A DNA stretch of 64,000 bases, taken from positions 20,550-84,549 of the forward strand of contig SVIC01000005.1 in assembly GCA_015055515.1 (NCBI GenBank). The letters are read 5' to 3'. Under the pieces are notes generated by a model. The model ran no database searches. It was not told where the DNA came from and worked only from the letters and a program-made list of their open reading frames with translations. The DNA is from Clostridiales bacterium. Its GTDB lineage: Bacteria; Bacillota; Clostridia; Christensenellales; UBA1242. The position numbers and the translations under genes were made by a program. Each line of letters begins with the position of its first letter. The stretch's first letter is position 1. Positions 59,934 to 59,964 of this stretch are shown in pieces.

Positions 59934-59964
59934 ATTATATATATATATATATATAAGATGTCAA
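59934..59964 (-). promoter_or_regulatory. putative promoter of the 58715-59824 gene with the (TA)10 tract as its spacer
   Basis: On the minus strand: TTGACA (59964-59959), a 19-nt spacer made mostly of the TA tract, then TATAAT (59939-59934). Confidence 0.5.
59936..59955. repeat. (TA)10 dinucleotide microsatellite
   Basis: Counted directly: t59936 to a59955 is ten TA units. Confidence 0.95.

Follow-up and report, generated by a model that had tools for sequence, protein, structure and literature searches.

The window, that is, the whole 64-kb stretch of DNA analysed here, carries on its minus strand a gene for a protein of 369 residues (58715..59824), with the divergent argR (60214..60666, plus strand), recN and the convergent proS as its neighbours. 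Upstream of this gene, and on the same strand, a consensus -35 hexamer TTGACA (59959..59964) is followed by a tct lead (59956-59958), a perfect (TA)10 dinucleotide repeat (59936..59955, no strand assigned), which is the proposed slippage-prone element, and a -10 hexamer TATAAT (59934..59939), the latter being made of the last TATA of the tract and the AT that follows it. The spacer between the two hexamers (59940..59958, minus strand) is composed of the 3-nt tct lead and the first 16 nt of the tract, and Tandem Repeats Finder describes the tract as a repeat of period 2 with 10.0 copies and 100% matches. This arrangement, including the length of 19 nt for the spacer at the present repeat number, had been read in the original prediction, and re-reading of the sequence reproduced it base for base.

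The ATG lies about 110 nt (109) downstream of the -10 hexamer and is preceded, at a distance of 8 nt, by the ribosome-binding site GGAAG (59833..59837, minus strand). Transcription would start near A59927, as inferred from the position of the -10 hexamer, with a predicted 5' UTR of ~103 nt (59825..59927, minus strand), and the leader RNA exhibits neither a significant fold (z = -0.8) nor a match in Rfam. At 17 nt from the -35 hexamer the minus strand offers in addition an alternative, weak -10-like hexamer, TATATA (59936..59941), which had been entered as a caveat in the original prediction and is indeed found at that place. In 19-nt promoters this hexamer is provided by the final six bases of the repeat, and longer tracts also offer one. 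The T that is highly conserved at the end of the sigma-70 -10 hexamer is missing from TATATA, which at its 17-nt distance could yield low residual activity and so weaken the consequences of a change in tract length.

The exact promoter anatomy at 59934-59964 is unexpected by chance, its full 31-nt pattern occurring a single time in the 64-kb window and matching in none of 100 dinucleotide-preserving shuffles even when two mismatches were allowed. A generic promoter scan accepts spacers of 16-18 nt only, and it misses this site because the 19-nt spacer falls outside that range. The same scan reports a further promoter-like site on the same strand at 60183-60155, and its promoter-like matches in the region amount to 16, with 15.7 expected from shuffles.

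Regarding the product, no Pfam or NCBIfam family matched the 369-residue protein, and the confidence of its AlphaFold model, for which 12 homologues were used, is low to moderate, with a mean pLDDT of 59. In this model a membrane helix at residues 3-33 precedes two beta-rich regions, a conserved one and a variable C-terminal one. Foldseek returned only weak matches to Gram-positive pilins and adhesins (TM-score <=0.25), and the protein, which ends in ...ITITITPAE, displays neither an LPXTG signal nor a lipobox cysteine. A sortase-assembled Gram-positive pilin is not supported, in view of the absent sorting motif, the pLDDT of 59 and the pilin TM-scores of <=0.25. The product is predicted to be a membrane-anchored, all-beta, surface-exposed orphan protein, and the surface location assumed in the original prediction appears probable from the modelled helix followed by beta domains. 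A second member of the family lies within the window (34595-36586, plus strand, 663 residues), behind a promoter free of simple repeats, in which TTGACA (34527-34532) and TATACT (34551-34556) are separated by 18 nt.

Repeat promoters of the gene family

The genome that holds the window (G000) comprises 1.07 Mb in 23 contigs, with 34% G+C and an estimated completeness of 92%. By tblastn it contains at least 23 paralogs of the window gene, while another genome search gave 27 matches, these being matches and not copy numbers; the 23 family genes together amount to 27.3 kb, 2.5% of its length. What the paralogs have in common is the membrane helix and, at the N-terminus, a conserved domain of ~210 residues that is 38-58% identical among those with TA promoters, and the C-terminal halves of the seven TA-promoter paralogs are hypervariable, with an identity of only 13-32%.

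TA tracts in this genome show a bimodal size distribution, with twelve tracts of 5 units, none of 6-7 and exactly seven of 8.5-10. All seven tracts of at least eight units occur in the same context (TTGACA, a lead of 3-6 nt, (TA)n and AT), and all seven of these promoters precede paralogs of the window gene, namely the window copy itself and six sister genes (tracts at C9:24364, C10:12472, C6:4280, C7:26681, C2:149117 and C11:372, where C denotes the contig). Each is followed by a ribosome-binding site and by a gene whose protein starts with MKTKQK... or similar, the distance from the -10 hexamer to the ATG being 92-109 nt in the TA-tract paralogs. The tracts are still pure although the N-terminal domains have diverged to the extent given above, which speaks for selection acting on the purity of the repeat.

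The preferred spacing can be read from those family promoters in which the tract is interrupted or missing. Six of them belong to G000 (C9:17394, C8:94367, C1:57915, C14:18347, C14:10861 and C1:24308), all with 17 nt to TATAAT, and the interrupted tract of a seventh, in the sister species G001 (contig C58), likewise gives 17 nt. All seven can be written as TTGACA/TTGACT-17-TATAAT, and they use TATAAT always and TATATA never. Thus, 17 nt appears to be the optimum of the family, since it is the spacing of every fixed promoter, and it is also the length that the window promoter would reach with one TA unit fewer, as the original prediction had pointed out. The pure tracts of G000 give 19 nt at six loci and 17 nt at one (C7). 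A spacer of 17 nt is found in 7/7 fixed promoters versus 2/11 pure tracts (Fisher p = 0.002, a value in which independence is overstated, the promoters being related). Most pure tracts stand off the 17-nt optimum by whole TA units, and they would seem to drift in 2-nt steps, a pattern characteristic of switches of the H. influenzae hif and Mycoplasma Vmm/Vmc type. As to the -35 element, TTGACA occupies the equivalent place in 13 of the 15 family promoters tabulated for G000, the other two having TTGACT and TTGACC, and it is present in all five family promoters of G001; by this comparison, the hexamers chosen in the original prediction are those conserved in the family.

Poly-G takes the place of TA in three further promoters, two with spacers of 19 nt and one of 20 nt. 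The promoter of paralog C8:14180 (upstream of C8:15823, minus strand) reads TTGACC-tct-G11-tagtga-TACAAT with a 20-nt spacer, and that of the paralog at C6:31222 (end of C6 and C23:25-34) reads TTGACT-aa-G10-tagatgg-TATCCT with a spacer of 19 nt and its tract at a contig break. The third precedes a lipoprotein gene (C3 35215..36111, minus strand; tract at C3:36172-36182) and consists of TTGACT, 8 nt, G11 and TATAAT, again with 19 nt between the hexamers. The tract upstream of C6:31222 is G9 in a JGI contig encoding an identical protein, versus G10 at both contig ends of G000.

Around the window promoter, a perfect 10-bp inverted repeat is formed by ATGTGGATAA (60004..60013, minus strand) as the upstream arm and TTATCCACAT (59878..59887, minus strand) as the downstream arm, the latter being a box that lies in the 5' UTR and resembles a DnaA box. 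Together with inner arms, this repeat builds an imperfect palindrome of 136 nt (59878-60013) centred on the TA tract, whose outer arms are similar to the DnaA box (TTATCCACA) and whose DNA fold has a z value of -4.4, which becomes -3.55 when the tract is kept in place. Only the window copy has the extended palindrome, the z values at the six sister TA promoters being 0.14 to -1.7, and it could allow a cruciform to extrude or be the relic of an inverted duplication. The box itself is more widespread; in nine members of the family [AT]TCCACA is found on the coding strand, 39-55 nt upstream of the ATG (59879-59887 in the window), and the TGTGGA/TCCACA motif is ~7.7-fold enriched upstream of family genes. 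Upstream of several family promoters (e.g., G000 C6:4150-4400) there are also ATCCACAA...TTGTGGAT hairpins followed by T runs. In a subgroup formed by C6, C2, C11, C1:57915 and C32 of G001 the box forms the 3' arm in a ~12-bp leader hairpin that shows a few compensatory changes, and the leaders of a subgroup of paralogs yielded a weak consensus hairpin. Several leaders of paralogs (G000 C6:4394, C11:275 and C1:57915, and G001 C32) carry a second TATAAT after TG-T (..ATGTATAAT..), ~20 nt before the ATG, possibly a repeat-independent proximal promoter, and this element is absent from the window copy.

Spacer lengths in relatives and other samples

Among 41 related genomes the family gave matches in six, mostly in G000 and the sister species G001, and the family is very small, only 12 proteins among 5.8 billion having been found at E < 1e-20, so that no additional strains were at hand for comparison. 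Distant members of the family display no repeats near their gene starts. G001 has no fewer than four copies of a promoter and leader homologous to those of the window gene; they share the TTATCCACAT box, and the leader likewise measures 108 nt. Apart from the interrupted tract at C58 (17 nt), these copies have pure tracts giving spacers of 15 nt (C36, at a contig end), 17 nt (C5) and 21 nt (C48, at a contig end). The latter three are near-identical on both sides of the tract, and they must represent separate loci because their flanks differ further upstream. The G001 ortholog (C32) of the TA-tract gene on C6 has a spacer of 15 nt versus 19 nt in G000. As for the window gene, its own ortholog in G001, which is 85% identical and adjacent to proS, is truncated at residue 38 where the contig ends and its promoter is missing from the assembly, and a synteny search did not find argR in the sister species.

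Spacers of this type also occur before other genes. In two other species of the genus (G016 and G006) an unrelated lipoprotein gene is preceded by TTGACA-(AT)n with spacers of 17 versus 13 nt, the flanks being almost identical. In all, TTGACA-(AT)n-TATAAT promoters stand before unrelated genes of the genus and the order at L014 (G016:C41), L015 (G006:C3), L016 (G001:C4), L042 and L043, lipoprotein and signal-peptide genes among them, with spacers of 13-17 nt. The TA-spacer device seems to have been recruited more than once, since it is found before unrelated genes in other species. Over the genus, TA-tract spacers take values of 13, 15, 17, 19 and 21 nt, matching the prediction of slippage in 2-nt steps. 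An order-wide search matched in 3 of 301 genomes with a pattern that was too narrow, and by that narrow pattern TA-spacer promoters appear rare outside the genus.

On the contrary, contigs with identical proteins from three other JGI metagenome samples carry the same TA number as G000 in 5/5 cases, namely (TA)10 at the window gene in two contigs, (TA)9 at the C6 gene in two and (TA)9 at the C7 gene in one. Consensus TA number is thus stable across these samples, contigs giving consensus lengths in which minority length variants are invisible. In the comparison of samples, as proposed in the original prediction for strains and metagenome-assembled genomes, the five identical-protein contigs thus gave a constant TA number; differences in repeat number were seen between recent paralogous copies of the sister species and between the orthologs C6 and C32, as well as between G016 and G006. 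Scans with exact patterns of the window promoter (variable gap) and of the sister-species promoter, which cover metagenome contigs from all but this genome and those very close to it, gave no matches. Two contigs with an identical gene (L031 and L032, from JGI 3300032167 and 3300018475) both start at the same point, exactly 20 nt downstream of the TA repeat, and this shared start could reflect trouble in its assembly. Genome G000 encodes MutS and MutL, and dinucleotide slippage would consequently be partly repaired in it, unlike in mycoplasmas. Mollicutes are not known to possess mismatch repair.

Candidate spacer switch and its alternatives

Considering these observations, the TA tract is proposed to be the spacer in a promoter of sigma-70 type, from which a surface protein anchored in the membrane and belonging to an orphan multigene family would be expressed. 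Being a perfect (TA)10 repeat within the spacer, it would allow replication slippage to shift the -35/-10 distance by units of 2 nt, with high expression at the family optimum of 17 nt, low expression or OFF at the present 19 nt, one unit too long, where TATATA might provide residual activity, and OFF at spacers of <=15 nt. With TA tracts on six other paralogs and poly-G tracts on two more, varied protein combinations would arise across the population. The designation of candidate phase or rheostat switch given in the original prediction finds support in the seven paralogous promoters sharing one layout, as well as in the fixed promoters at 17 nt and the sister-species copies at 15, 17 and 21 nt, all of which are comparisons of sequence. 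We infer that changes in length alter transcription, that they come fast enough for phase variation and that the protein is exposed at the surface. That the tract is a functional, mutable promoter spacer altering expression has, in our estimation, a probability of about 0.7, and for switching within populations at a rate sufficient for phase variation the balance is close to even.

The 19-nt length deserves particular attention. Six of the seven G000 tracts give this spacing despite differing leads, which is not obviously expected of a freely drifting tract and counts against a switch. The six 19-nt spacers differ in composition, lead and tract contributing 3+16, 5+14 or 6+13 nt, as built from tct or act with (TA)10, from catgc with (TA)9, or from ccttcg or tctcgc with 8.5 units. 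Helical geometry of TA or G tracts was considered as the cause of the 19 nt and rejected by analogy with porA, vlp and hif, promoters that all function at standard spacings of 16-17 nt. Two readings are favoured, either of which may apply. In one of them 19 nt would be an OFF or low state, one step away from ON, with most members of the family kept down in the sampled population; in the other, spacers of >=19 nt would be weakly active through TATATA at 17 nt and those of <=15 nt inactive, the tract thus acting as a three-level dial. With such a dial, expression would be high at 17 nt, low at >=19 nt by means of the internal TATATA and off at <=15 nt, so that six TA genes of the sampled population would be low and one high.

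The same constancy can be explained by 19 nt being a selected working state, in which the palindromic TA spacer, being easy to untwist, would make the promoter sensitive to supercoiling, or the two hexamers of an over-long spacer would be realigned by an activator of MerR type, or a cruciform would be extruded, the repeat number remaining constant. The exact 19 nt of six of the seven TA promoters from differing combinations of lead and tract, the 19 nt of two poly-G promoters, the identical TA numbers in other assemblies and the position of the window tract at the centre of the 136-nt imperfect palindrome agree with such a state. Nonetheless, the family promoters without a pure tract are all at 17 nt, their homologues in the sister species stand at 15, 17 and 21 nt and not at 19, and the other six TA promoters are devoid of the extended palindrome, which makes this explanation unlikely. 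MerR-type activation in particular, to which the 19-nt spacer and the palindromic tract would be suited, was discarded, as a search of the genome, 92% complete, for MerR_1 domains found none and the sister-species homologues are not at 19 nt. It might also be that the tract is a tolerated microsatellite of little regulatory effect and near-neutral length, transcription using TATATA at 17 nt or another promoter. At the present length or a longer one TATATA is always offered at that distance, several paralogs (the window copy excluded) have the second TATAAT ~20 nt before the ATG, and the further promoter-like site at 60183-60155 faces in the same direction. Such neutrality is hard to reconcile with all long TA tracts of the genome being confined to one promoter position and kept pure through deep paralog divergence, with fixed promoters using TATAAT and never TATATA, in which the final T is missing, and with promoter-like matches being no commoner than in shuffles (16 versus 15.7), and we consider it improbable.

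Promoters that invert, such as fimS of E. coli and the mpl promoters of Mycoplasma penetrans, suggest yet another arrangement, in which a recombinase would act on ATGTGGATAA (60013-60004) and TTATCCACAT (59887-59878) and the main ON/OFF switch would consist in flipping the 136-bp segment. A perfect 10-bp inverted repeat does bracket the promoter, TGTGGA/TCCACA boxes flank four or five other family promoters, with the ~7.7-fold enrichment of the motif, and the genome encodes two tyrosine recombinases. However, the 18 promoters of the family that were inspected in G000 and G001 all face their gene, as do the copies inspected in other assemblies, and no inverted copy was seen among them; the upstream boxes mostly belong to hairpins with T runs, terminator-like for the preceding gene, TA-spacer promoters elsewhere in the genus do without boxes, the two tyrosine recombinases may correspond to the XerC/XerD pair, and a search of the genome for serine recombinases found none. 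An inversion as the main switch is accordingly regarded as very improbable. The preferred interpretation remains a change of spacer length by slippage within the TA tract.

Relation to known systems

A switch of this kind has a precedent in the hifA/hifB promoters of Haemophilus influenzae, where (TA)9-11 lies between the -35 and -10 elements (van Ham et al. 1993, as summarised in PMC2651432 and PMC3899988). The original prediction had likewise invoked the hif fimbrial promoters. The likeness extends to a TA repeat of similar length that occupies the spacer and overlaps the -10 hexamer, to a repeat unit equal to a step of 2 nt and to a surface product. Differences are also apparent; in hif a single tract is common to two divergent promoters that overlap, whereas here argR is 250 nt off and nothing suggests that the tract is shared. 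Moreover, hif involves one or few loci of a Gram-negative pathogen with proven switching, whereas in the present case the candidate switch is repeated on seven promoters of paralogs from an orphan family, and the host is an uncultured commensal of the Clostridia from the gut.

Closer in organization are the variable lipoproteins of mycoplasmas. In Mycoplasma mycoides, dinucleotide changes in the promoter spacer switch the expression of Vmm (Persson et al. 2002, cited through PMC10502178 and PMC3053259), several lipoprotein genes are preceded by poly-TA tracts that vary in length (PMC10502178, PMC3053259), and in M. capricolum the Vmc surface lipoprotein genes have (TA)n tracts in their spacers (Wise et al. 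2006, cited through PMC10502178, PMC3053259 and PMC3498834). Both cases share a small AT-rich genome, several variable surface-protein genes each with its own spacer (TA)n, a layout that would allow independent, combinatorial ON/OFF expression, and tract lengths that differ between copies and strains. By the same sources, Vmm and Vmc are lipoproteins with internal repeats from wall-less Mollicutes, whereas the family studied here has an uncleaved-looking anchor and no lipobox and belongs to a member of the Christensenellales with MutS and MutL. No sequence similarity was found between the family protein and Vmm or Vmc, and the resemblance is convergent.

Promoters with homopolymer spacers are described for porA and opc of Neisseria meningitidis and vlp of Mycoplasma hyorhinis (PMC3899988, PMC10502178). 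As in them, the spacer repeat sets the -35/-10 distance, and sister promoters of the family carry G10-G11 tracts; those mononucleotide tracts move in steps of 1 nt with graded levels, whereas the TA tract here would move in steps of 2 nt. On these comparisons, the window promoter probably has a slippage-driven spacer switch of the hif and Vmm/Vmc kind, of known mechanism and in an unusual host. What is new is the Christensenellales host with mismatch repair, the orphan non-lipoprotein family and the mixture of TA and poly-G tracts, the mechanism itself being known. A more far-reaching picture can be put forward only tentatively, in which a reduced-genome, mismatch-repair-proficient gut Christensenellales bacterium would have evolved, independently of mycoplasmas, a Vmc-like contingency system in which at least 23 anchored surface proteins of an orphan family are displayed in varying combinations by means of seven TA and two poly-G tracts, each TA promoter acting as a three-level dial.

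Repeat-driven promoter switches are textbook matter in Haemophilus, Neisseria and mycoplasmas and are hardly documented in uncultured gut Clostridia. The dedication of ~2.5% of a very small genome to one orphan surface-protein family, with roughly ten promoters containing slippery repeats, suggests that stochastic surface variation is a major component of the lifestyle of this commensal. Such variation may act against phages, host antibodies or changing substrates, and the repeat promoters are ready marker loci for studies at the strain and population level.

Two minor features of the genome may be mentioned. Three family genes (C2:147924, minus strand; C8:94367, plus strand; C14:17241, minus strand) encode N-terminal domains that are 93-96% identical and C-terminal halves of 28-56% identity, and their promoters differ, with a pure TA tract at 19 nt, an interrupted one at 17 nt and no tract at 17 nt, respectively; this combination of near-identical N-termini with different promoters and C-termini suggests a recent shuffling of modules by recombination or gene conversion. 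Finally, a perfect (CTTG)18 occupies the end of contig C9 (G000 C9:1-72), adjoining a radical-SAM-like gene (189..1094, minus strand), and may be either another contingency repeat or an artefact of the assembly end.
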